Assembly: GCA_021537435.1 (NCBI GenBank) | Contig: GCA_021537435.1_3050.1 | Source of the DNA: a phage | Length of the DNA: 64,000 bases | Strand: one strand, 5' to 3' | In this document: positions 1,953 through 54,103 of the stretch, piece after piece | How positions within the stretch are numbered: position 1 is the stretch's first letter | Layout of the letters: each line of letters opens with the position of its first letter | Notes under the pieces: generated by a model | Database searches by the model: none | The model's input: the letters and a program-made list of their open reading frames with translations, nothing else | Told to the model about the DNA's origin: nothing | Made by a program: the position numbers and the translations under genes

Positions 1953-3932
1953 ATGACTTTATTATCTCCGGGCATTGAGCTCAAAGAAACTACGGTTCAA
2001 AGCACCGTGGTTAATAACTCTACTGGTACAGCAGCTTTGGCCGGTAAATTCCAGTGGGGTCCTGCTTTTCAGATTAAACAGGTTACAAATGAAGTAGATT
2101 TAGTTAATACTTTTGGTCAACCAACCGCTGAAACTGCTGACTATTTTATGTCTGCGATGAATTTCTTGCAGTACGGAAATGACTTACGAGTAGTTCGTGC
2201 TGTTGATAGAGATACCGCTAAAAACTCATCGCCAATTGCTGGTAATATTGAATACACAATTTCTACCCCAGGTAGTAACTACGCGGTTGGAGATAAAATC
2301 ACGGTTAAATATGTTTCAGATGATATTGAAACTGAAGGTAAAATTACTGAAGTAGACGCAGATGGAAAAATTAAGAAAATTAATATTCCTACTGCAAAAA
2401 TTATCGCTAAAGCGAAAGAAGTTGGTGAATATCCAACACTAGGTTCTAACTGGACTGCGGAAATTTCTTCGTCTTCCTCTGGTTTAGCTGCAGTAATAAC
2501 TCTTGGAAAAATTATTACTGATTCTGGTATTTTATTAGCTGAAATTGAAAATGCTGAAGCTGCTATGACAGCGGTTGACTTTCAAGCAAATCTCGAAAAA
2601 TACGGAATTCCAGGAGTAGTAGCTCTTTATCCAGGCGAATTAGGCGATAAAATTGAAATTGAAATCGTATCTAAAGCTGACTACGCAAAAGGAGCTTCTG
2701 CATTACTCCCAATTTATCCAGGTGGTGGTACTCGTGCATCTACTGCTAAAGCAGTGTTTGGATATGGACCACAAACTGATTCACAGTATGCTATTATAGT
2801 TCGTCGTAATGATGCTATTGTTCAAAGCGTTGTTCTTTCAACTAAGCGTGGTGAAAAAGATATTTACGATAGTAACATCTATATCGATGACTTTTTCGCA
2901 AAAGGTGGTTCAGAATATATTTTTGCAACTGCACAAAACTGGCCAGAAGGCTTCTCTGGAATTTTAACTCTGTCTGGTGGATTATCATCAAATGCTGAAG
3001 TAACAGCAGGAGATTTGATGGAAGCTTGGGACTTCTTTGCTGACCGTGAATCTGTTGACGTTCAGCTGTTTATTGCGGGTTCTTGTGCCGGTGAATCTTT
3101 AGAAACAGCATCTACTGTCCAAAAACACGTCGTTTCAATTGGGGATGCTCGCCAAGATTGCTTAGTATTGTGCTCACCACCGCGTGAAACTGTAGTTGGA
3201 ATTCCTGTAACTCGTGCAGTAGATAATTTAGTTAACTGGAGAACTGCAGCAGGTTCATACACTGATAATAACTTTAATATCAGTTCAACCTATGCAGCAA
3301 TCGACGGCAACTACAAATATCAGTATGACAAATATAATGATGTGAATCGTTGGGTTCCATTAGCAGCTGATATTGCTGGTTTATGCGCAAGAACTGATAA
3401 CGTATCTCAGACTTGGATGTCACCAGCTGGTTATAATCGTGGTCAGATTCTTAACGTTATTAAACTTGCTATTGAAACTCGCCAGGCTCAGCGCGACCGT
3501 TTATACCAAGAAGCTATCAACCCGGTAACTGGTACAGGTGGCGATGGTTACGTATTGTACGGTGATAAAACAGCTACTTCTGTTCCTTCTCCGTTTGATC
3601 GTATTAACGTTCGTCGTCTGTTTAATATGTTGAAAACGAATATCGGACGTAGTTCAAAATATCGTTTGTTCGAATTAAACAACGCGTTTACTCGTTCATC
3701 ATTCCGCACAGAAACTGCCCAGTACTTACAGGGAATTAAAGCTCTCGGTGGAATTTATGAATATCGTGTAGTTTGCGATACAACAAATAATACTCCGTCA
3801 GTAATTGATAGAAATGAGTTTGTTGCAACATTCTACATCCAACCTGCACGCAGTATAAATTATATCCAACTTAACTTCGTTGCGACTGCTACTGGTGCAG
3901 ATTTCGATGAGTTGACTGGTCTTGCAGGTTAA
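1953..3932 (+). CDS. 18: contractile tail sheath protein gp18
   Basis: 659-aa ORF directly after gene 17; length and position as T4 gp18; SD AAAGAGGA upstream. Confidence 0.9.
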   Translation: MTLLSPGIELKETTVQSTVVNNSTGTAALAGKFQWGPAFQIKQVTNEVDLVNTFGQPTAETADYFMSAMNFLQYGNDLRVVRAVDRDTAKNSSPIAGNIEYTISTPGSNYAVGDKITVKYVSDDIETEGKITEVDADGKIKKINIPTAKIIAKAKEVGEYPTLGSNWTAEISSSSSGLAAVITLGKIITDSGILLAEIENAEAAMTAVDFQANLEKYGIPGVVALYPGELGDKIEIEIVSKADYAKGASALLPIYPGGGTRASTAKAVFGYGPQTDSQYAIIVRRNDAIVQSVVLSTKRGEKDIYDSNIYIDDFFAKGGSEYIFATAQNWPEGFSGILTLSGGLSSNAEVTAGDLMEAWDFFADRESVDVQLFIAGSCAGESLETASTVQKHVVSIGDARQDCLVLCSPPRETVVGIPVTRAVDNLVNWRTAAGSYTDNNFNISSTYAAIDGNYKYQYDKYNDVNRWVPLAADIAGLCARTDNVSQTWMSPAGYNRGQILNVIKLAIETRQAQRDRLYQEAINPVTGTGGDGYVLYGDKTATSVPSPFDRINVRRLFNMLKTNIGRSSKYRLFELNNAFTRSSFRTETAQYLQGIKALGGIYEYRVVCDTTNNTPSVIDRNEFVATFYIQPARSINYIQLNFVATATGADFDELTGLAG

Positions 3933-3948
3933 TACGGTGCATTCTAAA

Positions 3949-3966
3949 GGCCTGTTTCGGCAGGCC
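3949..3966 (+). terminator. GC hairpin after gene 18
   Basis: GGCCTG-tttcgg-CAGGCC; no clean U-run. Confidence 0.4.
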
Positions 3967-9933: not shown

Positions 9934-9949
9934 GATATAACCTTATTAT

Positions 9950-9967
9950 GGGAGACTTCGGTCTCCC
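9950..9967 (+). terminator. rho-independent terminator after gene 23
   Basis: GGGAGAC-ttcg-GTCTCCC followed by a T-rich tract. Confidence 0.8.
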
Positions 9968-9982
9968 ATTCTTGTTTCTATA

Positions 9983-10249
9983 CTACGCAATCTTAACTCG
10001 ACGGTTGATGATGTCACGGAAGTCAATACGATTTTCTTGGATTTTCAGCCAGTTACCAGATTTGTCTTTGGTATGGGTAGAATATTCACCGTTCCACCAG
10101 AAGTCAGTAGCATAAGCCATGGTTTCATATTTCTTAACTAGGGCATTCACTGCATTACCGTTAGGATTGGAACCATATTTTTCTACCAGGGCTTTGATGT
10201 CTTTATCAAGAGCGGACAGAGTAGTACGAATAAAGTTTAACTTGTTCAT
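9983..10249 (-). CDS. hypothetical protein (88 aa from the internal ATG; ORF open to 10264)
   Basis: Minus-strand ORF in the 23-24 intergenic region; the ATG at 10249 has a near-perfect SD AGGAGA with 7-nt spacing; an 88-codon open frame in AT-rich DNA is unlikely by chance. Confidence 0.5.
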   Translation of the reverse strand: MNKLNFIRTTLSALDKDIKALVEKYGSNPNGNAVNALVKKYETMAYATDFWWNGEYSTHTKDKSGNWLKIQENRIDFRDIINRRVKIA

Positions 10250-10315
10250 TTTTAATCTCCTCATGTTTTTGATAGGTCTATAGTAACATGTGATAACCTT
10301 GCTGTAAACAACTTT

Positions 10316-15090: not shown

Positions 15091-15119
15091 TAGATATATT
15101 TATTACATGGTATTTAGAC

Positions 15120-16631
15120 ATGACTGACATTAAAGTACATTTTTATGATTTTAGTCACGTGAGAATTGATTGTGAAGAAAGTACATTTCATGAACTCCGT
15201 GATTTCTTTAGCTTTGAAGCTGATGGGTATCGTTTTAATCCGAAGTACAGATATGGCCACTGGGATGGACGAATCCGTCTGTTAGATTATAATCGTCTTC
15301 TTCCATTCGGCTTAGTCGGGCAAATTAAAAAATTCTGTGATAACTTTGGCTATAAAGCCTGGATTGACCCGCAAATTAACGAAAAAGAAGAATTATCAAG
15401 AAAAGATTTTGATGAATGGCTTTCTAAATTAGAAATCTATTCAGGAAATAAAAGAATTGAACCACACTGGTATCAAAAAGATGCAGTGTTCGAAGGATTA
15501 GTTAATCGTCGTAGAATTCTTAATCTTCCAACATCCGCTGGTAAATCATTAATTCAAGCTTTGCTTGCGCGATATTATTTGGAAAATTATGAAGGTAAAA
15601 TTCTTATCATTGTTCCAACAACTGCCTTAACAACTCAGATGGCTGATGACTTCGTCGACTATCGTCTATTCAGTCATGCAATGATAAAGAAAATTGGTGG
15701 CGGAGCATCAAAAGATGATAAATATAAAAATGATGCACCAGTCGTCGTTGGTACATGGCAAACTGTAGTTAAACAACCAAAAGAATGGTTCTCACAGTTT
15801 GGAATGATGATGAATGATGAATGCCATCTTGCTACTGGAAAAAGTATTTCATCTATCATATCAGGTTTAAATAACTGTATGTTTAAATTTGGTTTATCTG
15901 GTTCATTACGTGATGGCAAAGCCAATATCATGCAGTATGTTGGAATGTTTGGTGAAATATTTAAGCCGGTAACGACCTCTAAATTAATGGAAGATGGACA
16001 AGTAACTGAGTTAAAAATTAATAGCATTTTTCTTCGCTATCCCGATGAGTTCACTACTAAATTAAAGGGAAAAACTTATCAAGAAGAAATAAAAATTATT
16101 ACTGGGCTCAGTAAAAGAAATAAATGGATCGCTAAATTAGCTATTAAGCTTGCGCAAAAAGATGAAAACGCTTTTGTCATGTTTAAACATGTATCACATG
16201 GTAAAGCTATTTTCGATTTAATTAAAAATGAATACGATAAAGTTTATTACGTATCAGGGGAAGTTGATACCGAAACCCGCAATATAATGAAAACCTTAGC
16301 TGAAAATGGTAAAGGAATAATTATAGTAGCTAGTTATGGTGTATTTTCTACTGGTATTTCAGTTAAAAATCTGCATCACGTTGTTTTAGCGCACGGTGTT
16401 AAATCTAAAATTATTGTATTGCAAACAATAGGTCGCGTATTACGTAAGCATGGTTCTAAGACAATAGCAACCGTCTGGGACCTCATAGATGACGCGGGCG
16501 TAGTTTCTAAATCAAAAACATCTTCTAAAAAATACTCGCATTTAAACTATCTTTTAAAACATGGACTTGATCGTATTCAGCGTTATGCTGATGAAAAGTT
16601 TAATTATGTGATGAAAGAGGTTAAACTTTGA
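15120..16631 (+). CDS. uvsW: UvsW SF2 DNA/RNA helicase
   Basis: 503 aa; Walker A PTSAGKS, DECH box (MNDECHL); late promoter TATAAATA at 15083-15090. Confidence 0.93.
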   Translation: MTDIKVHFYDFSHVRIDCEESTFHELRDFFSFEADGYRFNPKYRYGHWDGRIRLLDYNRLLPFGLVGQIKKFCDNFGYKAWIDPQINEKEELSRKDFDEWLSKLEIYSGNKRIEPHWYQKDAVFEGLVNRRRILNLPTSAGKSLIQALLARYYLENYEGKILIIVPTTALTTQMADDFVDYRLFSHAMIKKIGGGASKDDKYKNDAPVVVGTWQTVVKQPKEWFSQFGMMMNDECHLATGKSISSIISGLNNCMFKFGLSGSLRDGKANIMQYVGMFGEIFKPVTTSKLMEDGQVTELKINSIFLRYPDEFTTKLKGKTYQEEIKIITGLSKRNKWIAKLAIKLAQKDENAFVMFKHVSHGKAIFDLIKNEYDKVYYVSGEVDTETRNIMKTLAENGKGIIIVASYGVFSTGISVKNLHHVVLAHGVKSKIIVLQTIGRVLRKHGSKTIATVWDLIDDAGVVSKSKTSSKKYSHLNYLLKHGLDRIQRYADEKFNYVMKEVKL

Positions 16632-17320
16632 ATTATAAATTAATATATGATAATTTAATTAATAGAGCCCAGAATCGGGCTCGCCTTAATGGATACACTG
16701 AAACACATCATATAATTCCTAGATGTATGGGTGGTACAAATGATAAGTGTAATTTAGTAGAACTAACGGCTGAAGAACATTTTATAGCCCATAAACTTTT
16801 AGCTAAAATTCATCCAAACCATTACGGTATAATTAAAGCTGTTATATGTATGGGGATGAATTCAAATACTCATGAAAGACACGTCAATAAATCTTACGCA
16901 TGGGAACGTCGTAAAATGGCAGAACTTCAATCCGGCGAAGGTAATCCATTTTACGGAAAACACCATACGGAAGAACATAAACAATATATGTCAAAACTCA
17001 TGAAAAGTCGTCCAATTACATGGGGAAATAAAATTAGTAAAACTAAAAGAATGAACCCAACGAAATGGACTGAAGAAGCTAAAAGATTACATTCAATCAA
17101 TCAATCGGGTAAAAATAACGGCATGTATGGAAGGAAACATTCCGCTAAATCTATTCAGAAAATTAAAGATAACATGCCAGATAATTCAGGAGCTAATAAC
17201 CCAGCTGCTAAACCTATAGAAGTAAATGGTGTTAAGTATAAATGTATGAAAGATGCTTCTAAAGCTACTGGATTATCAATGTACAAACTAAGAATACTTA
17301 GAAAAACAGTTAATTTATAA
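16628..17320 (+). CDS. HNH homing endonuclease-like protein with NUMOD-type DNA-binding repeats (TTG start)
   Basis: 230-aa ORF; HNH core HHIIPRCMGG…N…EEHFIAH; two GxxNPxYGKHH-like repeats; no in-frame ATG upstream of the HNH motif, but TTG at 16628 follows SD AAAGAGG by 6 nt and overlaps the uvsW stop. Confidence 0.8.
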   Translation: MNYKLIYDNLINRAQNRARLNGYTETHHIIPRCMGGTNDKCNLVELTAEEHFIAHKLLAKIHPNHYGIIKAVICMGMNSNTHERHVNKSYAWERRKMAELQSGEGNPFYGKHHTEEHKQYMSKLMKSRPITWGNKISKTKRMNPTKWTEEAKRLHSINQSGKNNGMYGRKHSAKSIQKIKDNMPDNSGANNPAAKPIEVNGVKYKCMKDASKATGLSMYKLRILRKTVNL

Positions 17321-26225: not shown

Positions 26226-28283
26226 CTACATTTTGAACTTTTTAGACATTCCGTTGATGTTAACCAAAGAAGCTAAGATTTGAGAAACTTCGTTTTCCTC
26301 TTCTTTTGATTCTTCTACAAGGAATTGATTAAATCCAGCCATTGGACGAACTTCACCAGTTTCCATCAAATGATCGCCATCATATACTGATTCTTCTAAT
26401 TGCTCAGAAGGAGGAACGATTGTACCTTCGATTAGATACTTGTTATAAGCAGTTTCTTTCATAAAGTACGTACTTACTTTATTAATCTTCAGTAAAATTC
26501 CACGCGGTAGAATAACTTCAGCTTCTGATGGAAATCCTGATAAATGACCTGGAACGATAACTTTGATTCGCTCAGCTCCTTTAATTACCATACCCACGCT
26601 AGTTTCAGCATCTTCATTGGCATATGTAGAATGACTACCCATATGCATTAAATCTTCTGCATCAACGGAACCTTCTCCTTCGCCAGAAAATACTGCGCCG
26701 GAATCATCTAGAGCCATATAGTTTTTACCATGCTCACCGAAGATATTTGGTTTAAGTGATGTCGATACGAAGTTCTTGAAATAGAACATTTTGTTTTCAA
26801 TGTTATGACGCAAAGTTTTAAAGGTAACTTCTTGTCCACGGTAAAGTGTAGTTCCTGGAGGAAGAACTGATCCTTTGGCAAAGGCAGAATCTAACGTCTC
26901 GATGTGCTTAATAGCTCTTTCCATGTATTCTTCACGGGTAGAATCTGGTTTACCCAAAAGGAACGAGTTCATTTCAACATATGAATCTGCACAATAATCT
27001 TCAATTACATCAGATTCAGCCTGAGTCAGTCCTTTTGGAGTTACTTCGGTGCTTGCGTATTCATATGCCTGAGCAGCAGATTCATTAATCAATTTATAAA
27101 TGCCATTCATTACAAATTGAATAATAGCTGTCTTTTCATCTGATGTAGCTTTAGAACCTTTAACTAAATCATTGATAATTTTCTTAATAACATCAAAGCT
27201 ATTAGAAATATTAATGTCAGCAAGATCGCTTAAAATTTTATCAGTTTTATAATCAAAGAATTCTTTATTCTTTAAATATTCTTGAGAACCTTGATATGTT
27301 ATATCGCTCTGCAGCTTGATAGATGGATCGCGTAAACGTGCATGGGCTAATGCAATATGATTTCGGAAACTTTCTAGTTCATAATCATTAGATTTAAAAC
27401 GAGAAGCACTTCTCATACCACCGATAGCTCCTTTGCTGAAGTTTGAACCAATCTGGATAACGCCAGAGTTCATTGGTCCTTCTGCTTTATATACCGGAAC
27501 TTTAGATTCAAACTCTTGATATTTCTTGGCAGCGAAGCTATCACCCTGAAGTGAAGCATCAACAGTAGAATATTGAGCTTGTGCTGCTAATCGACGACTA
27601 ATTTTAGTTTTCTGAATAACAGCTTGATCAGTGCGCTTATCATTTTCCAAAGCAATAGAAGCAGCAACTGCGACAGCTTTAGGAACAGCATTACCTGTTT
27701 TAACGTCTACATAAACATCACCAACCTTTGATTCAACTTTTGTGAATAACTCAGTTGAAATAGGAGGTACACCTGGAATGTCTTCTAAATTGGCATTTTT
27801 ACGGTAAACCATAATATATGCATATTTCTTATCATAGTCCCAGATTTCCTTTAAAAGAACATATCGACCTGCTCCTTTAGTACGTACTAAACGGTCAGCA
27901 ATAACTTGCATTTGACGAGCAGCGCCATTTGTTTTACTTTTTAGTACGCGGAATAGGCATGCATCAATTTTATACTGTTTCATTGTTTGAAGAGCAGTAT
28001 CAAAAACCGCATTAATGACACCAATTGGATTTCCACCCAAGTTTTTAAGCTTAACTAACGATAATTTCTCATTAACACCTATCATTACGATATGCATCAT
28101 TTTGTCGCCTGGCTTAACGTTTTTATTCGTATCACCGCCAGAGGTGTATGTACAAAATCGAAATCCAGGAAGAACGCTTTCTTCACCGGCTTGAATAGCA
28201 AAAATTTGAGGTATTTTATGCTTAGGATTTAAGTTAACAACCGGCGCCGAAGCGCCGTCAAATAATTCTGTAATAAGTTCCAT
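26226..28283 (-). CDS. alt: Alt-like ADP-ribosyltransferase, paralog A (685 aa)
   Basis: N-terminus MELITELFD (capsid-targeting, gp21 site LITE); C-terminal ART signatures YxxxxYxEMN, YRGQ, FVSTSL, SEAEVILPRG. Confidence 0.85.
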   Translation of the reverse strand: MELITELFDGASAPVVNLNPKHKIPQIFAIQAGEESVLPGFRFCTYTSGGDTNKNVKPGDKMMHIVMIGVNEKLSLVKLKNLGGNPIGVINAVFDTALQTMKQYKIDACLFRVLKSKTNGAARQMQVIADRLVRTKGAGRYVLLKEIWDYDKKYAYIMVYRKNANLEDIPGVPPISTELFTKVESKVGDVYVDVKTGNAVPKAVAVAASIALENDKRTDQAVIQKTKISRRLAAQAQYSTVDASLQGDSFAAKKYQEFESKVPVYKAEGPMNSGVIQIGSNFSKGAIGGMRSASRFKSNDYELESFRNHIALAHARLRDPSIKLQSDITYQGSQEYLKNKEFFDYKTDKILSDLADINISNSFDVIKKIINDLVKGSKATSDEKTAIIQFVMNGIYKLINESAAQAYEYASTEVTPKGLTQAESDVIEDYCADSYVEMNSFLLGKPDSTREEYMERAIKHIETLDSAFAKGSVLPPGTTLYRGQEVTFKTLRHNIENKMFYFKNFVSTSLKPNIFGEHGKNYMALDDSGAVFSGEGEGSVDAEDLMHMGSHSTYANEDAETSVGMVIKGAERIKVIVPGHLSGFPSEAEVILPRGILLKINKVSTYFMKETAYNKYLIEGTIVPPSEQLEESVYDGDHLMETGEVRPMAGFNQFLVEESKEEENEVSQILASLVNINGMSKKFKM

Positions 28284-28286
28284 GAT

Positions 28287-30383
28287 TTATCCTTGAACGA
28301 ACTTGTAAGGCATGTTTGTAATATCTATGCAAGACGCAATAATTCCAAGAGATGATTCTACTTTCTGTTTAACATTTGATGAAACAAATGATGCAAAGTC
28401 AACTCTGTCTTCTATTTCAATATCACCTGTCATTGCAACCAATTCACCAGTTTCCATTAAATGGTCTCCGTCATAGATTACCGATTCGGTGAGCTCTTCC
28501 GTGGTCATAACTTCAGCTTGAATGAGTTTTGTATTATTAGATGTTGTTCCGTCATTATTAGAAGCATCAGTTATTTTATTAACTTTGACCATCAATCCAC
28601 GCGGTAGAATAACTTCAGCTTCTGTTGCTATTCCGAGACTTCCTGGATATACAACATTAACTTTATGAGCTCCATCAATTGCCCATCCTATTTGAACTTT
28701 AACGTATTCAGGATTTTCTTTATACGCTCTTATTTCGTTTGGATTAATAGTTATTCCTTCTTCATTTTTATCAACTGTTAATTCATTGCGAGCTTCTGGT
28801 TCTAAAAGACCAATACCAGCATGTGTGATTCCAAAACGTCCAAAAATGATAGGAGTTAAAGAAGTAGATACAAAATTTCTGAAGTAGAACACTTTATTTT
28901 TAACTAACGCTTCATATATAGGAGCAGTCATACTTTGAGCACGATAAACTGTAATGCCTTCTGGTATACGGTCACCATTTTCAAAAGCTGAATCTAAGTT
29001 ATTTATAGCAGATTCAATTTCTTTTTCACTCATTACATCATATCGTTCTGGATTGTAACGACCTAAAAGAAGATTATTGATGTCAGTATATCCTGAACCG
29101 CAATATTCTCTAATGCCACGCTTTTGTGATGGAGTATATTTAGAACCATCGCGGGCAATAGTAATATCAATCATTGGACCAGCACCAATTCCAGAAAAAC
29201 TGTAAATCATTCGTTTGAGGAATTTAGTTTTTGCTGCGTTCCAGGAATTTTTAGTTATTTCTTCCCAGACTTCATCTGGTTGTCCTTTACGATTTTTATT
29301 ATGATTAGCAAGCCATTTATCTTTATAATCTTCAAAGAATTGATTTACAGCTGCTGCGTATTTCTCTAAACATTTTATTGAAGTAGTTGGTTCATTTTTA
29401 ATTGCATTAAAAATTACTTCTTTAATTTTTTCTGAAACTTCACCGACTTGACTCATTGGAAAGAATTTATAATCATAGTGAAGTTCATCTGCCGTTCCTT
29501 CAGCAATAATTTTTGCTGCCTTTGTTTTAGAAGCTAATGAATTAATTCCAATTTTCATTTCTTCTGCTTCGGGAATTAAAGGTGCAGTAGCTGGTTTATT
29601 AAAATTAGCTGCTGTAGATTCATACTTCTGGAATAATTCACTTTCAAATCTAGAAGATTCCAATGACTGACTTTGTGCAATTGCTCTACGGGAAATTTTA
29701 ACTTTAACGATTACGGCTTGGTCAGAACGTTTATCATTTTCTTGTGCAATAGATGCAGCAATTGCCTCATTTTTGGTTACTTGAGCTCCAGTATCTTTAT
29801 TGATATAAACATCACCGACCTTCGATTCAACTTTAGTAAAGAGCTCGGTGCTAATTTCTGGAACTCCTGGAATGTCTTCTAGTGATACATTTTTACGATG
29901 TATAAGAATATATGCATACTTTTTATCGTAATCCCAGAGTTCCTTAAGAAGGACGTATCTGCCACCTGAACGACTGCGGATGAGTCTATCAGCAATAAGT
30001 TGAATTTGTCGAGCTTGACCGGCGGTTTTAGACTTAAGAATACGAAGCATGCAGGCATCAATTTTATATTGACGCATTGTTTGCATTGCAACAGTAAAAA
30101 CTGAATTGATATAATTAATTGGGCTTGGACCAAGACCTTTTAATTTAGCAATTGAACCTTTAGCAGTTAATGTAAAAGGAACAATATGCATCATTTTGTC
30201 GCCCATTTTTAAATCGCGATTAGTATCACCTCCAGATGTATAGGTACATAAACGAAAGCCTGGTTGTTCAATTGCATCATCAACATGAACTGAAAAAATT
30301 TGTGGTATTTTCTTCTTTGGATTTAAGTTTGTAATCGGAAGAGTAGTATCTTCGTCAAATAATTCTGTAATGAGTTCCATCAT
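28287..30383 (-). CDS. Alt-like ADP-ribosyltransferase, paralog B (698 aa)
   Basis: N-terminus MMELITELFD; ART signatures YxxxGYTDINN, YRAQ, FVSTSL, TEAEVILPRG; first ~230 aa and last ~80 aa strongly similar to paralog A, middle divergent. Confidence 0.85.
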   Translation of the reverse strand: MMELITELFDEDTTLPITNLNPKKKIPQIFSVHVDDAIEQPGFRLCTYTSGGDTNRDLKMGDKMMHIVPFTLTAKGSIAKLKGLGPSPINYINSVFTVAMQTMRQYKIDACMLRILKSKTAGQARQIQLIADRLIRSRSGGRYVLLKELWDYDKKYAYILIHRKNVSLEDIPGVPEISTELFTKVESKVGDVYINKDTGAQVTKNEAIAASIAQENDKRSDQAVIVKVKISRRAIAQSQSLESSRFESELFQKYESTAANFNKPATAPLIPEAEEMKIGINSLASKTKAAKIIAEGTADELHYDYKFFPMSQVGEVSEKIKEVIFNAIKNEPTTSIKCLEKYAAAVNQFFEDYKDKWLANHNKNRKGQPDEVWEEITKNSWNAAKTKFLKRMIYSFSGIGAGPMIDITIARDGSKYTPSQKRGIREYCGSGYTDINNLLLGRYNPERYDVMSEKEIESAINNLDSAFENGDRIPEGITVYRAQSMTAPIYEALVKNKVFYFRNFVSTSLTPIIFGRFGITHAGIGLLEPEARNELTVDKNEEGITINPNEIRAYKENPEYVKVQIGWAIDGAHKVNVVYPGSLGIATEAEVILPRGLMVKVNKITDASNNDGTTSNNTKLIQAEVMTTEELTESVIYDGDHLMETGELVAMTGDIEIEDRVDFASFVSSNVKQKVESSLGIIASCIDITNMPYKFVQG

Positions 30384-42489: not shown

Positions 42490-42992
42490 TTAAAAATATT
42501 TTTTAAAACTCATCATAACTTTATCATCAACATCATTATCAATCTGTGCTACAAGGTAAGATGACAGTTCTACTTCTTGTGGCGCGGATTGAACATTATC
42601 AGAATTAAGATATTCACGAATCCAAGGATACGGATGTTTAACCGGAGCATCAGTAATTGGGCATGGAAGACCGCACTGTTTCATACGAGATACAGTTAAG
42701 TAATCAATAAAGCTCCACATGCTATTTGTATTTAATCCAGGAACATCGCCATCTTTAAATAAATGAACTGCCCAGTCTTTTTCTTGACGGTTAACTTCCA
42801 TGAAAATATCAACTGCTTCTTGTTCACACTCTTGAGCAATTTTAACCCATTCATCGCCATCAGTACCAGATTGAAGTTGACGAATAATATATTGGGTGCC
42901 TTTAAGGTGAAGCTGTTCATCGCGTGCAATGAACTTCATAATCTTGGCATTACCTTCCATGATTTCCATGTTTTTATGGAAGTTGAAAGTAC
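42490..42992 (-). CDS. nrdB: ribonucleotide reductase small subunit NrdB, exon 2
   Basis: Frame encodes (C)TFNFHKNMEIMEGNAKIMKFIARDEQLHL… to stop; 3' splice site placed after intron-terminal G at 42993. Confidence 0.85.
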
Positions 42993-44082
42993 CGTTATGT
43001 TCGATTGAGCTCGCTAATTCTCAATCCGTTCTCTTATGAACTGCTACATATTACTATGCAGACCAGACTATATCACAATCCCAGAGGGATTCTCCCCATT
43101 TCGAGTCGCTTGACCCTACGTCCGAAGACTAGTCGTTGAACCTTGCTTTGCAATTGTCGCCGTGCCATCGTTTATATGTTGATGGTGATAAATCTTTCTT
43201 ATCACAATATGGACAATTCAATTGAATTCTATTTGGATTTAATTTACATCTGTCATTATGTTTTAGATAAAATCCAGGACCTTTACCAATGTGACCACAG
43301 AAATCACATGTGATTTCTTTTTGTGCAGGATGGGTCCCGTTCTTAACCATTTCTAATGTTTTTGCTGATGTTCTTTTCTTATGGTCTTCTGATAAGAAAT
43401 GATGTGAACCGTCATTTACCCGTTTTGATTGAGTTTCTGACTGCATTTTACCACCGCAAAATACATGAGTACCTTCTTTTATAGCTGCAATATTACGTTC
43501 TTTAACTTTTGCAATATGCTCAGCTTGTTGAAAATTATGTATACCTAATGCAACTCTATTTAAATTAGATTTACGCTGTATTTCACCATCTAAAAGATGA
43601 AATGTACCATTTTCTATCTTAGATTTAATAGAGGCAATATTTTTAGCTCGTACTTCAGGGATATTAAAAATCTGGATTTCTCTAGATTTTGCGGCTTTAG
43701 AAGCTAATTCAGAAATTTCTTCAGGAGAATATTTCATTCTAAGCTTTATAGCATGACAAGCCTGGTAATCTTTTTGAGCTAAATGTATATCATAATGTTC
43801 CTGTATAGAAAGGCACATCAAATTATCTAAATCATTATTTTCACGGTTACCGTCTTTATGATGGATTTCGTATGTTCTTCCATCAGAATCTTTAGGTATA
43901 GGTCCGTTAGCATCTATCCAAATTTTTCTATAGTTCAATTGTGCATCCTCTTAAAAGTATAATCATATTTATATTATACTAATTAAAGGTGCAAGCAAAA
44001 CCTTGGCTGCTAGTTTTCCATAAAGGACTTTCCAGCAATTAAAGGAGTTTTCGATAAACGTTACCGTTTAAAGGCGCATTTT
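42993..44082 (-). mobile_element. group I intron in nrdB (1090 nt) carrying I-TevIII
   Basis: Exon-1 frame hits TAA right after …RFYVSFA; splicing GCG-T|…G|GT-ACT restores SFA-C-TFNF, colinear with E. coli NrdB; 3' part resembles the td intron 3' core. Confidence 0.85.
43129..43938 (-). CDS. I-TevIII: intron-encoded HNH homing endonuclease I-TevIII, full length
   Basis: 269 aa; HNH motif EIHHKDGNRENNDLDNLMCLSIQEHYDIH; C-terminal Cys-rich zinc-finger-like region. Confidence 0.85.
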   Translation of the reverse strand: MNYRKIWIDANGPIPKDSDGRTYEIHHKDGNRENNDLDNLMCLSIQEHYDIHLAQKDYQACHAIKLRMKYSPEEISELASKAAKSREIQIFNIPEVRAKNIASIKSKIENGTFHLLDGEIQRKSNLNRVALGIHNFQQAEHIAKVKERNIAAIKEGTHVFCGGKMQSETQSKRVNDGSHHFLSEDHKKRTSAKTLEMVKNGTHPAQKEITCDFCGHIGKGPGFYLKHNDRCKLNPNRIQLNCPYCDKKDLSPSTYKRWHGDNCKARFND

Positions 44083-44746
44083 ACGCAAAAGATACATAAA
44101 AACGAATAGCTTCCAATGCGTTGATTACATGGAGGCAAAGGTAAAGAGATTTCATCAGATCTCGTTTAGCTCTTTGCTCAACGTCTTTATCAGCTAGAAT
44201 TAGACCTTGGTCTTTATAATATTCAACCATGTCTTTAGCATTTTCCCATTCACGGGTTTTAACCAAGACATCATCATAATAGCGACCGATAGATTCAGCA
44301 CGTTTCATGATAGCTTCATCTAATACAATCTCATCAAATACCTTTGATGGATCAGTATAAAGATTTCGCATGATATGAGTATATGAACGACTGTGAATAG
44401 TTTCACTAAAAGTCCATGTAGCAACCCATGTATCAAGGCTTGGGTCTGAAATTAATGACATAAGTACAGCAGATGGCGCACGACCCTGAATGCTATCCAA
44501 AAGTGATTGATACTTCAGGTTATTAGTAAAAATATTCTGCTGATACTGAGGAAGTTTATTAAATTGTGCAGCATCCATCATCAAGTTTACTTCTTCAGGA
44601 CGCCAGAAAAATGATAATTGCTTTTCAGTCAAATCTTCAAAAACTTTATGGCGTTGAATATCATAACGCGCAATACCAAGACCTGAACCGAAGAACATAG
44701 GTTCTTTTAAAACATCAACTGGATTTGTATTAAAAACTGTAGACAT
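44083..44746 (-). CDS. nrdB: ribonucleotide reductase small subunit NrdB, exon 1
   Basis: 221 codons, MSTVFNTNPVDVLKEPMFFGSGLG…ALEAIRFYVSFA, ending at the 5' splice site after U (44083). Confidence 0.88.
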
Positions 44747-44780: not shown

Positions 44781-45572
44781 TCACATATTATGTATAAGCA
44801 CTTCGGTCTGAAATGATGCACCCTTCTTTTGCTTCCTATACATGGTTTCAAAATATTCAATTTTGAAATTATTAGAAAGGGCCCAATCTTTTAAAATATA
44901 ATTATTAATATCGTCTGATAGATTATTAGTGATAATAAATTTAGACTTCGATTGTTTAATTTTGTCTAATAATTCTAATTCATCCTTTTCTTCCCAGCCT
45001 GAATATTTAAATTTAGTAGAAAGATACGGCGGGTCAATGAATAAATTTTTGTTTTCAAAATCCAAATCTCTGAATGATTTATTACTAAATGTAAATCGGT
45101 GCTGTCTATTTTTAAATTCAGAAAATTTATCCTGCTGAGACTTATTAAAAGAAGTTCTGGAATACTTGGCTCTATTGGCGAAAGCCGCGTTATAATTCCC
45201 ATTACTAGAAAATCGGATTAACGAACTGAATGAAAATAAATGTAGAACATAAAGATATAATCCGTTTTTGGTTTTATCGTATTCTTTTGACAGATTATAA
45301 AAAGGTGCTGAATCTTTGTCATTCAAATTAAAATCTTCAATAATTTTAACTATATCATTAATTGAAGATGATTTCATCTTTTTATACATGTCTATAAGAG
45401 GAGTATTAATATCATTACATATAACATCTCTCTGACAATTCATAGAAAATCCAAGACCACCACAAAAAGCATCCAAAACAGGCTTATCGTCAAAGCGGTT
45501 TGAAAATTGTCTAATAAATGGCATATACTTATGTTTTGCACCTGGATATGTTATGGCAGGTAGGTCTTTCAT
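44781..45572 (-). CDS. Dam-family (alpha-class) DNA N6-adenine methyltransferase-like protein
   Basis: 263 aa; motif I DAFCGGLG at aa 34-41; Dam-like YPGAK and CNDIN; LYLYVLH; catalytic DPPY at aa 180-183 (nt 45024-45035 verified by hand). Confidence 0.8.
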   Translation of the reverse strand: MKDLPAITYPGAKHKYMPFIRQFSNRFDDKPVLDAFCGGLGFSMNCQRDVICNDINTPLIDMYKKMKSSSINDIVKIIEDFNLNDKDSAPFYNLSKEYDKTKNGLYLYVLHLFSFSSLIRFSSNGNYNAAFANRAKYSRTSFNKSQQDKFSEFKNRQHRFTFSNKSFRDLDFENKNLFIDPPYLSTKFKYSGWEEKDELELLDKIKQSKSKFIITNNLSDDINNYILKDWALSNNFKIEYFETMYRKQKKGASFQTEVLIHNM

Positions 45573-48437: not shown

Positions 48438-48749
48438 TTACACCGCCATTTTTCCTTTCAAGACGCCGTGGGACTGATAATCTTTGAGAACGAAATCTTT
48501 AGGCCTGAGTTTAAGAATGTATTCCAATTGTTCTTTAGTAGAAAGATAGCGGAATTTATAAGGCAATCCGCCTATTACCAGTTCACAAAGCTCTTTAGGT
48601 TCACGACGCAAAATTTCTTTACATTGTTCTACGTGATTCATATAGATATGAGTATTACCACCGGAAAATATCAAATCTCCCGGAATAAGATTACACATCT
48701 TAGCTACAATATGAACTAACGTAGCATATGATGCAATATTAAATGGAAG
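48438..48749 (-). CDS. td: thymidylate synthase, exon 2
   Basis: Encodes LPFNIASYATLVHIVAKMC…; begins immediately after intron-terminal ATG|CTTCCATTTAAT. Confidence 0.9.
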   Translation of the reverse strand, partial: LPFNIASYATLVHIVAKMCNLIPGDLIFSGGNTHIYMNHVEQCKEILRREPKELCELVIGGLPYKFRYLSTKEQLEYILKLRPKDFVLKDYQSHGVLKGKMAV

Positions 48750-49765
48750 CATTATGTTCAGATAAGGTCGTTAATCTTACCCCGGAATTATATCCAGCTG
48801 CATGTCACCATGCAGATCAGACTATATCTCCAACTTGTTAAAGCAAGTTGTCTATCGTTTCGAGTCACTTGACCCTACTCCCCAAAGGGATAGTCGTTAG
48901 GCATTTATGTAGAACCAATTCCATTTATCAGATTTTACACGATAAGTAACTAATCCAGACGAAATTTTAAAATGTCTAGCTGCATCTGCTGCACAATCAA
49001 AAATAACCCCATCACATGAAATCTTTTTAATATTACTAGGCTTTTTACCTTTCATCTTTTCTGATATTTTAGATTTAGTTATGTCTGAATGCTTATGATT
49101 AAAGAATGAATTATTTTCACCTGAACGATTTCTGCATTTACTACAAGTATAAGCAGAAGTTTGTATGCGAACACCGCACTTACAAAACTTATGGGTTTCT
49201 GGATTCCAACGCCCGTTTTTACTTCCGGGTTTACTGTAAAGAGCTTTCCGACCATCAGGTCCAAGTTTAAGCATCTTAGCTTTAACAGTTTTAGAACGTT
49301 TCTTAATAATTTCTTCTTTTAATGGATGCGTAGAACATGTATCACCAAACGTTGCATCAGCAATATTGTATCCATTAATTTTAGAATTAAGCTCTTTAAT
49401 CCAAAAATTTTCTCGTTCAATAATCAAATCTTTCTCATATGGAATTTCTTCCAAAATAGAACATTCAAACACATTACCATGTTTGTTAAAAGACCTCTGA
49501 AGCTTTATAGAAGAATGGCATCCTTTTTCTAAATCTTTAAAATGCCTCTTCCATCTCTTTTCAAAATCTTTAGCACTTCCTACATATACTTTATTGTTTA
49601 AAGTATTTTTAATCTGATAAATTCCGCTTTTCATAAATACCTCTTTAAATATAGAAGTATTTATTAAAGGGCAGTCCTACAATTTAGCACGGGATTGTCT
49701 ACTAGAGAGGTTCCCCGTTTAGATAGATTACAAGTATAAGTCACCTTATACTCAGGCCTCAATTA
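48750..49765 (-). mobile_element. group I intron in td (1016 nt) carrying I-TevI
   Basis: 5' exon ends …GTTTTCTTGGGT; intron starts TAATTGAGGCCTGAGTATAAGGTGAC…; 3' end …CATAATG; length equals the T4 td intron. Confidence 0.92.
48897..49634 (-). CDS. I-TevI: intron-encoded GIY-YIG homing endonuclease I-TevI
   Basis: 245 aa; MKSGIYQIKNTLNNKVYVGSAKDFEKRWKRH; Cys-rich linker and C-terminal DNA-binding region. Confidence 0.92.
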   Translation of the reverse strand: MKSGIYQIKNTLNNKVYVGSAKDFEKRWKRHFKDLEKGCHSSIKLQRSFNKHGNVFECSILEEIPYEKDLIIERENFWIKELNSKINGYNIADATFGDTCSTHPLKEEIIKKRSKTVKAKMLKLGPDGRKALYSKPGSKNGRWNPETHKFCKCGVRIQTSAYTCSKCRNRSGENNSFFNHKHSDITKSKISEKMKGKKPSNIKKISCDGVIFDCAADAARHFKISSGLVTYRVKSDKWNWFYINA

Positions 49766-50314
49766 ACCCAAGAAAACATCTACTGATCGTTGATACCACT
49801 GCAAATCCAAATAGCCATTACGCACATTAAACTGATAGAACATATGACAAGGCGGTAATGCCATATATTTAAGTTCAGCTGGATTCCACGCAGAAACAAT
49901 TTGTCGCCTATCATTCGGCAGTTTTTTAATACGATCAATAACTTCTATAATTTGGTCTACACCACCAAAATCACGCCATTGTTTTCCATAAATTGGACCA
50001 AGTTCACCGCTATGGTATCCTAAATCTTTTGCTTGATTTTCGTAATTTTCATCCCAGACTGTTTTGCCTTGAATTAATGAATCATGCTGAATTAATCGTA
50101 AATCATTGACATTCGTGCTTCCTGATAAAAACCATATTAACTCAGCAATGCAAGCTTTCCAAGCGAGCTTTTTAGTTGTTACTGCAGGAAAACCTTTGGT
50201 TAAATCCCAACGCAATTTAGTACCGAACAAAGCAATTGTTCCTGTGCCCGTTCGGTCATCGGTTTCATAGCCGTTTTCAAGAATGTCTTTAATTAAATCT
50301 TGGTATTGTTTCAT
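49766..50314 (-). CDS. td: thymidylate synthase, exon 1
   Basis: 183 codons MKQYQDLIKDILENGYETDDRTGTG…ALPPCH…VDVFLG, ending at the splice site. Confidence 0.92.
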
Positions 50315-50359: not shown

Positions 50360-50707
50360 TCAATACGGTTTAGCATCAAATTTTCTCTCAATTTCAGGCG
50401 TGAAATATAATTCTTTACCGCGTTTGGAAAAGCGACCAATAATATGATAATTATTCTCATCAAACGTGATATTGCCGATATCCATAGCTTTCAACCAAAT
50501 ATCGATATTTCTATCCAACTTTATGTCAAAATTCCAATACGGAGAACTATTACCGAAAATACTGCAAGCGGATTCAGTAAAACAACTACTATAAATCTTG
50601 TCTTTAGGAACTACTAATTGATAGACGCCTTTAATAAACTGAGGACCCTGCCATTTTGGTTGTTTCGCGTCTTTTTCTAATAGAATAGGGTAATAATTAA
50701 AATTCAT
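50360..50707 (-). CDS. hypothetical protein in the frd-td insert (115 aa from ATG; 119 aa from GTG at 50719)
   Basis: ORF fills a 417-bp insert at the frd/td junction; no recognisable motif. Confidence 0.5.
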   Translation of the reverse strand: MNFNYYPILLEKDAKQPKWQGPQFIKGVYQLVVPKDKIYSSCFTESACSIFGNSSPYWNFDIKLDRNIDIWLKAMDIGNITFDENNYHIIGRFSKRGKELYFTPEIERKFDAKPY

Positions 50708-50727
50708 ATTTTCCGCCACGTGTTATT

Positions 50728-54004: not shown

Positions 54005-54103
54005 TTTTATTTCCTTTTTAATTTAATTAACAGTTGGTGCTATGACGATGTATGACCTCATAGCTGGTCAGTAAGATAATTATAATCTATTTATAATAAG
54101 CAA

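Follow-up and report, generated by a model that had tools for sequence, protein, structure and literature searches.

The nrdB introns of phages RB3 and T4 are both treated as self-splicing group I introns (PMC1865063, PMC2790892). The RB3 intron and its endonuclease I-TevIII were described by Eddy & Gold in 1991, as cited in PMC2988022, and by Robbins et al. in 2007 (PMC1865063). RB3 I-TevIII works as a dimer; its catalysis requires residues H26, H27, N39 and H48, and its DNA binding requires C211/C214 and C242/C245 (PMC1865063). The enzyme is labile and of very low specific activity in vitro; homing of the RB3 intron reaches 4.3%, compared to <0.1% for the T4 remnant, a difference of more than 40 times (PMC1865063). 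Inheritance of the T4 intron depends on MobE in trans (PMC2790892). [quoted passage not shown]

In the DNA analyzed here, one stretch of 64,000 nucleotides from a phage (the window), nrdB is interrupted by an insert of 1090 nt. With a probability of about 0.93, we regard the insert as the classical mobile group I intron that T-even phages carry in nrdB, here in the full-length form known from RB3. This reading is carried by the junctions and the identities to known sequences, by the unbroken ORF with its motifs, by the pairing of the helices and by the purifying selection on the ORF; no feature of the sequence counts against it. The features of the locus, all on the (-) strand, are as follows.

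44083..44746 (-), nrdB exon 1: 221 codons and the first base of a Cys codon (ORF and Pfam Ribonuc_red_sm match)
42993..44082 (-), nrdB intron of 1090 nt, assigned to group I (IA2-type) from RB3 identity, a partial Rfam match and helix checks
43990..44082 (-), 5' ribozyme segment: P1 3' strand, P2, P3 5' strand, P4/P5 and P6/P6a 5' strand (pair tables and minimum-free-energy (MFE) fold)
44077-44074, 44070-44055, 44047-44042 and 44038-44007 (-), within that segment: P1 3' strand, P2, P3 5' strand and P4/P5, respectively
43942..43993 (-), predicted hairpin sequestering the ribosome-binding site of I-TevIII (fold of -14.9 kcal/mol)
43129..43938 (-), I-TevIII ORF of 269 aa with a TTG start: HNH domain in the N-terminal ~50 aa and two C-terminal zinc fingers
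43384..43874 (-), segment of 491 nt deleted in T4 (alignment with NC_000866)
42993..43152 (-), 3' ribozyme core: P6a/P6 3' strand, P7, P7.1, P7.2, P3 3' strand, P8, P9, P9.1, P9.2 and terminal G (Rfam alignment and pair tables)
43134-43130 / 43070-43066, 43097-43092 and 42993 (-), within that core: P7, P3 3' strand and terminal G, respectively
42490..42992 (-), nrdB exon 2: the final two Cys-codon bases, then 166 codons and a stop

The uninterrupted reading frames, as called, cover the N-terminal half of the small chain at 44746-44081 and its C-terminal half at 42969-42490 on the (-) strand. The two exons match different parts of the Pfam Ribonuc_red_sm profile, positions 9-144 for exon 1 and 177-271 for exon 2. 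Exon 1 ends with ...RFYVSFA and one T, the U at 44083 being the 5' splice-site U, and exon 2 starts with GT-ACT at 42992. The earlier note had derived these junctions by hand, with the Cys codon and the frame restored across them, and they proved to be exact. Aligned with the intronless nrdB of phage vB_Eco_NR1, the window shows a gap of exactly 44082..42993, all 1090 bases, which is also the length that had been claimed for the intron. The gap cannot slide, since the first base of the intron (A) differs from that of exon 2 (G), and its last base (G) from that of exon 1 (T); the junction is therefore unambiguous. Excision of 44082..42993 joins T44083 to GT42992 and gives one in-frame ORF of 1167 nt, encoding a 388-aa NrdB that reads ...RFYVSFA-C-TFNFHKNMEIMEGNAK... 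and is collinear with NR1 nrdB, as a class Ia ribonucleotide reductase beta subunit. The predicted ligated mRNA reads ...TTTGCGT up to the junction and GTACTTTC... after it.

In the deposited genomes of Pu-Krd-SF6, vB_Eco_BGP, e11/2, S16 and HY03, nrdB is given as two CDSs flanking an endonuclease gene, and the exon 2 fragment begins at an internal ATG. In the window, nrdB should be annotated as one spliced gene; the two-fragment annotation is wrong. Several GenBank records err by splitting nrdB in this way, and the correct annotation is the main use of the present finding.

The intron appears to be a group I intron of subgroup IA2, of the T-even phage type, and its splicing is suggested by its 99.4% identity to the RB3 intron and its T4-like core. 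P1 consists of a wobble between U44083 and G44077 (G6 of the intron), followed by three G-C/C-G pairs; the last base of the intron is G at 42993, the omega G. For the window and five relatives, the helices were examined by direct pairing, and P3, P4, P5, P7, P7.1, P7.2, P8, P9, P9.1 and P9.2 were all formed by standard pairs in all six. P2 (intron positions 13-18 / 23-28) and P6/P6a are paired in the MFE fold of a mini-intron from which the ORF was removed. The same fold gives P1, P2, P4-P6a and P7-P9.2 and does not recover P3, because P3 crosses P7 as a pseudoknot; P3 was verified by direct pairing. The ORF occupies the P6a loop, and its last codons and stop make up the P6a/P6 3' strands and the P7 5' strand.

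Some of the differences among the copies preserve or improve the helices. In P9, the T4 type and the type shared by RB3 and the window are distinguished by one compensatory change between A-U and G-C, and by another pair that went from G.U to G-C. Two non-coding positions of the intron, 43025 and 44020, set the window apart from the other full-length copies in the comparison. The A at 43025, which is G in all five relatives, turns a G.U into an A-U pair in P9.2; it is the sole window-specific change in the core, and it improves pairing. At 44020, the P5 loop has one A fewer than RB3, the same state as in T4. We considered whether this deficit of 1 nt against the RB3 genome record could be a frameshift and rejected the idea: the P5 loop, in which it falls, is non-coding, and T4 has the same state. 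Nothing in the intron sequence suggests impaired splicing.

The Rfam search of the whole window at the gathering threshold gave no match. In E-value mode, the Intron_gpI model (RF00028) matched the intron in part, with 34 bits (E=4.9e-6) against a gathering score of 50, and the partial alignment puts P7, P3', P8 and P9 in sensible places. We take the low score as a limit of the model and not as counter-evidence, because P6a holds an ORF of about 850 nt and the window's td intron is likewise missed.

The ORF in the P6a loop is the 269-aa HNH/zinc-finger endonuclease that the earlier note had described. It matches Pfam HNH_3 with 48.7 bits (cut-off 24.8), carries two CX2CX12-13HX3C zinc-finger motifs at residues 211 and 242, and is identical to RB3 I-TevIII at 268 of 269 residues. 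All the essential residues, H26, H27, N39, H48, C211, C214, C242 and C245, are kept. The TTG start lies seven bases past GAGGA, and the same start is annotated in both RB3 records. Compared to Salmonella phage S16, with 87% nucleotide identity, the ORF has 63 synonymous and 41 non-synonymous substitutions and no indel in 810 nt, which gives a dN/dS of 0.11; compared to HY03, with 97% nucleotide identity, dN/dS is 0.095. These values indicate that the ORF is under purifying selection; a dN/dS of about 0.1 over 104 substitutions, with no indel, points to long-term selection for the protein. The linker of I-TevIII (residues 74-114, window 43597-43719 (-)) also matches Pfam FlgM (anti-sigma-28) with 26.2 bits at a cut-off of 25; the match is probably compositional and due to a Lys/Ser/Ala-rich helical stretch.

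The hairpin at 43993-43942 has a z-score of -3.2, and none of 200 shuffled sequences was equally stable. The ribosome-binding site GAGGA (43950-43946) is paired inside it, and the loop holds the T4 late-promoter motif TATAAATA at 43973-43966. By analogy with the T-even introns, the hairpin would mask the I-TevIII ribosome-binding site on early and middle transcripts, and transcripts begun at the late promoter in the loop would be without its 5' arm, with the site left free. Expression of I-TevIII is thus probably limited to late times.

The same gene, insertion site and architecture are found in RB3 (X59078; KM606994; UniProt TEV3_BPR03). Aligned with the RB3 and T4 introns, as the earlier note had proposed, the window intron is 99.4% identical to that of RB3 (1083 of 1090 positions, 7 differences), and T4 lacks 43874-43384. 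Within the ORF, RB3 differs from the window at four silent positions and at one residue. In the exons, RB3 differs at 78 of ~676 aligned columns in exon 1 and at 13 of 503 in exon 2. The intron is far better conserved than its host gene, as is typical of an element that moves laterally. In exon 1, the window differs at 44114-44138 (-) from all five intron-bearing relatives, and only half of the positions there match the intronless NR1. Over the 31 nt of exon 1 that adjoin the intron, the window agrees fully with four of those five relatives; the fifth, Pu-Krd-SF6, is one base off. The stretch at 44114-44138 may be the end of a co-conversion tract.

The only residue that differs between the window and RB3 I-TevIII (3146-3955 of the RB3 stretch compared) is residue 23, Tyr in the window and Asp in RB3, with its codon at 43870-43872. 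It sits three to four residues ahead of the catalytic His26/His27. Y23 is present in every other allele examined, including HY03 and S16; the exact 269-aa protein of the window is found on 164 public contigs, the RB3 form on 6, and matches at ≥99% identity to the first 60 residues of I-TevIII occur in 56 phage records. We considered Y23 as a disabling mutation and rejected it, since Y23 is the consensus and D23 the exception. A PDB sequence search for a solved relative that would place residue 23 in a structure found none. To our knowledge, all published I-TevIII biochemistry used the RB3 allele (D23). The laboratory reference enzyme thus deviates from the natural consensus beside the active site, which is relevant to any re-examination of I-TevIII activity. 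The outlier status of the RB3 enzyme, and not of the window's, is a mildly new point; that it might bear on the reported weak activity of the RB3 enzyme is speculative. The stronger form of this idea, that the low specific activity and lability of the RB3 enzyme and the original failure to detect homing are peculiarities of the RB3 lineage, and that the Y23 enzyme is possibly a considerably better homing endonuclease, we hold to be rather unlikely.

T4 (NC_000866, T4p231) has the same insertion site and ribozyme core as the window, and the flanks of the splice sites are identical. Different from the window, T4 has lost 491 nt, which takes out the HNH motif and shifts the frame, and the remnant ORF is annotated as defective; the earlier note's description of the T4 ORF as truncated and inactive was correct. 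The deletion is flanked by an imperfect direct repeat, GAAGAaCATA / GAAGAcCATA. Near the 3' end, T4 is also short of one A, and it carries six substitutions in the 3' end of the ORF and the 3' ribozyme that are absent from the window and RB3; one compensatory pair is among the six, and T4 additionally has G at the window's A 43025.

The earlier note had further stated that the full-length form is known from only a few relatives, and this part did not stand. Using megablast against 50,697 phage records, we found the 1090-nt intron in 127 records; the best matches are 99.5% identical, among them RB3 with its 1991 record X59078 and its genome KM606994, in which the ORF bears the annotation I-TevIII. 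The collection contains GenBank/RefSeq duplicates, so all these figures are records and not independent phages. A 600-nt probe of spliced nrdB matched 726 phage records. The I-TevIII ORF matched 120: in 85 the match spans 80% or more of the ORF, and in about 35 it spans ~40%, which is the T4-type deletion. The full-length form is thus present in roughly one eighth of the nrdB-bearing records; it outnumbers the T4-type form of the intron, which makes T4 the exceptional case. The textbook picture, with T4 as a dead copy and RB3 as the rare intact one, is reversed in today's data, and the premise of rarity reflects the older literature and not current databases. Shortened forms of 97, 87, 73 and 105 aa are frequent in the I-TevIII protein cluster, and a scan of IMG/VR for I-TevIII relatives gave a single locus, apparently of the deleted form.

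The window is collinear with T4 96.6-156.7 kb. Compared to T4, it lacks segD, segE, segG and mobE. The surroundings of nrdB and the sites of the missing seg genes are as follows.

48438-50314 (-), td gene with a group I intron, collinear with T4; intact 245-aa I-TevI, ORF 48897-49634
47880-45616 (-), nrdA
44781-45572 (-), D12-class N6-adenine DNA methyltransferase gene, 263 aa (Pfam PF02086, 85.7 bits)
~9941-10303, position of T4 segD: 362 bp in the window, about 760 bp in T4
~15106-15126, position of T4 segE: about 20 bp in the window, about 640 bp in T4
~54067-54103, position of T4 segG: about 36 bp in the window, about 620 bp in T4

The methyltransferase gene lies between nrdA and nrdB, upstream of nrdB, where T4 and RB3 have mobE (T4 also nrdB.1). 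This insert is found in only 7 phage records; the best match, 99.7% identical, is in vB_Eco_NR1, where it stands beside the intronless nrdB. Genes like denA and rnlA come after nrdB exon 2. The absence of an adjacent MobE helper agrees with an intron that depends on the endonuclease it encodes itself. Elsewhere in the window, a 230-aa ORF with an HNH-type N-terminus (16628-17320 (+)) is inserted between uvsW and uvsW.1, where T4 has no insert; its first ~190 nt share 72% identity with T4 mobE, and it looks like a free-standing mob-type homing endonuclease. A 119-aa ORF at 50360-50719 (-), between td and frd, is absent from T4, and NR1 has a hypothetical gene there. The alt / alt.-1 to alt.-3 region (26245-29574) is rearranged or strongly diverged compared to T4, matching it in overlapping pieces of 69-80% identity.

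Two other explanations of the locus have to be weighed. In one of them, the insert is not a splicing intron at all; instead, nrdB would be split or pseudogenised, and a free-standing HNH endonuclease gene would have inserted into it. The deposited genomes that annotate two nrdB fragments and a separate endonuclease would agree with this, as would the Rfam score below the gathering level. However, the insert is 99.4% identical to an experimentally shown mobile group I intron, as cited in PMC1865063, and it has all the group I helices, the U.G pair at the 5' splice site and the terminal G. Its excision also restores the exact sequence of intronless alleles. The split annotations are pipeline artefacts, and we give this explanation hardly any credence.

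A less extreme explanation accepts that the intron splices and holds that the endonuclease is dead or nearly so, the ORF looking intact through recent arrival of the intron, and the element persisting by hitch-hiking or recombination, much as MobE maintains the T4 remnant. The very low specific activity and lability of the characterised RB3 enzyme would fit, and the truncated forms of the protein cluster, together with the records of the T4-type deletion, show that loss of endonuclease function is tolerated. Against it, a dN/dS of about 0.1 over 104 substitutions compared to S16, in 810 nt free of indels, speaks for lasting selection on the protein; every essential residue is retained, and there is no mobE beside nrdB to mobilise the intron in trans. 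We consider a dead endonuclease quite improbable. With catalytic and zinc-finger residues, ribozyme helices, RBS hairpin and late promoter all intact, and dN/dS at about 0.1, it is a reasonable inference that the phage has an active nrdB homing system; given the weak, labile RB3 enzyme and its 4.3% homing, 'active' may amount to modest activity.

Under the preferred reading, that of a mobile intron with its own endonuclease, the nrdB RNA would fold as a group IA2 ribozyme with the U.G pair of P1, the P3-P7 pseudoknot, P7.1/P7.2, P8-P9.2 and the terminal G. Judging from the experiments on T4 and RB3, from which splicing, cleavage and homing are all carried over, the ribozyme would excise itself from the transcript and allow a normal 388-aa class Ia ribonucleotide reductase beta subunit to be made. 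The gene in the P6a loop would encode I-TevIII, and double-strand-break repair would copy the intron during mixed infections.

The element is already known, and the window has its commonest allele: it was described in 1991 and characterised in 2007, and dozens of genomes in the databases hold identical copies. The finding is right but unremarkable, and it matters little beyond annotation. In e11/2 (vB_EcoM_112), phiD1, AV121, vB_Eco_BGP and others, I-TevIII is identical to that of the window over 269 aa and the intron is 99.5% identical; these phages differ from the window by three to six silent changes in the ORF, in the nrdB exon background and in the content of the nrdA-nrdB spacer. The td intron with I-TevI is likewise of group IA2, lies in a gene of nucleotide metabolism, has its ORF looped out of the core and is controlled by a late promoter and an RBS hairpin (PMC2988022). 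It differs in its host gene and in its endonuclease, which is of the GIY-YIG and not the HNH type: I-TevI is a monomer that cuts at -23/-25, whereas I-TevIII is a dimer that cuts at -14/-16 (PMC2988022, PMC1865063).
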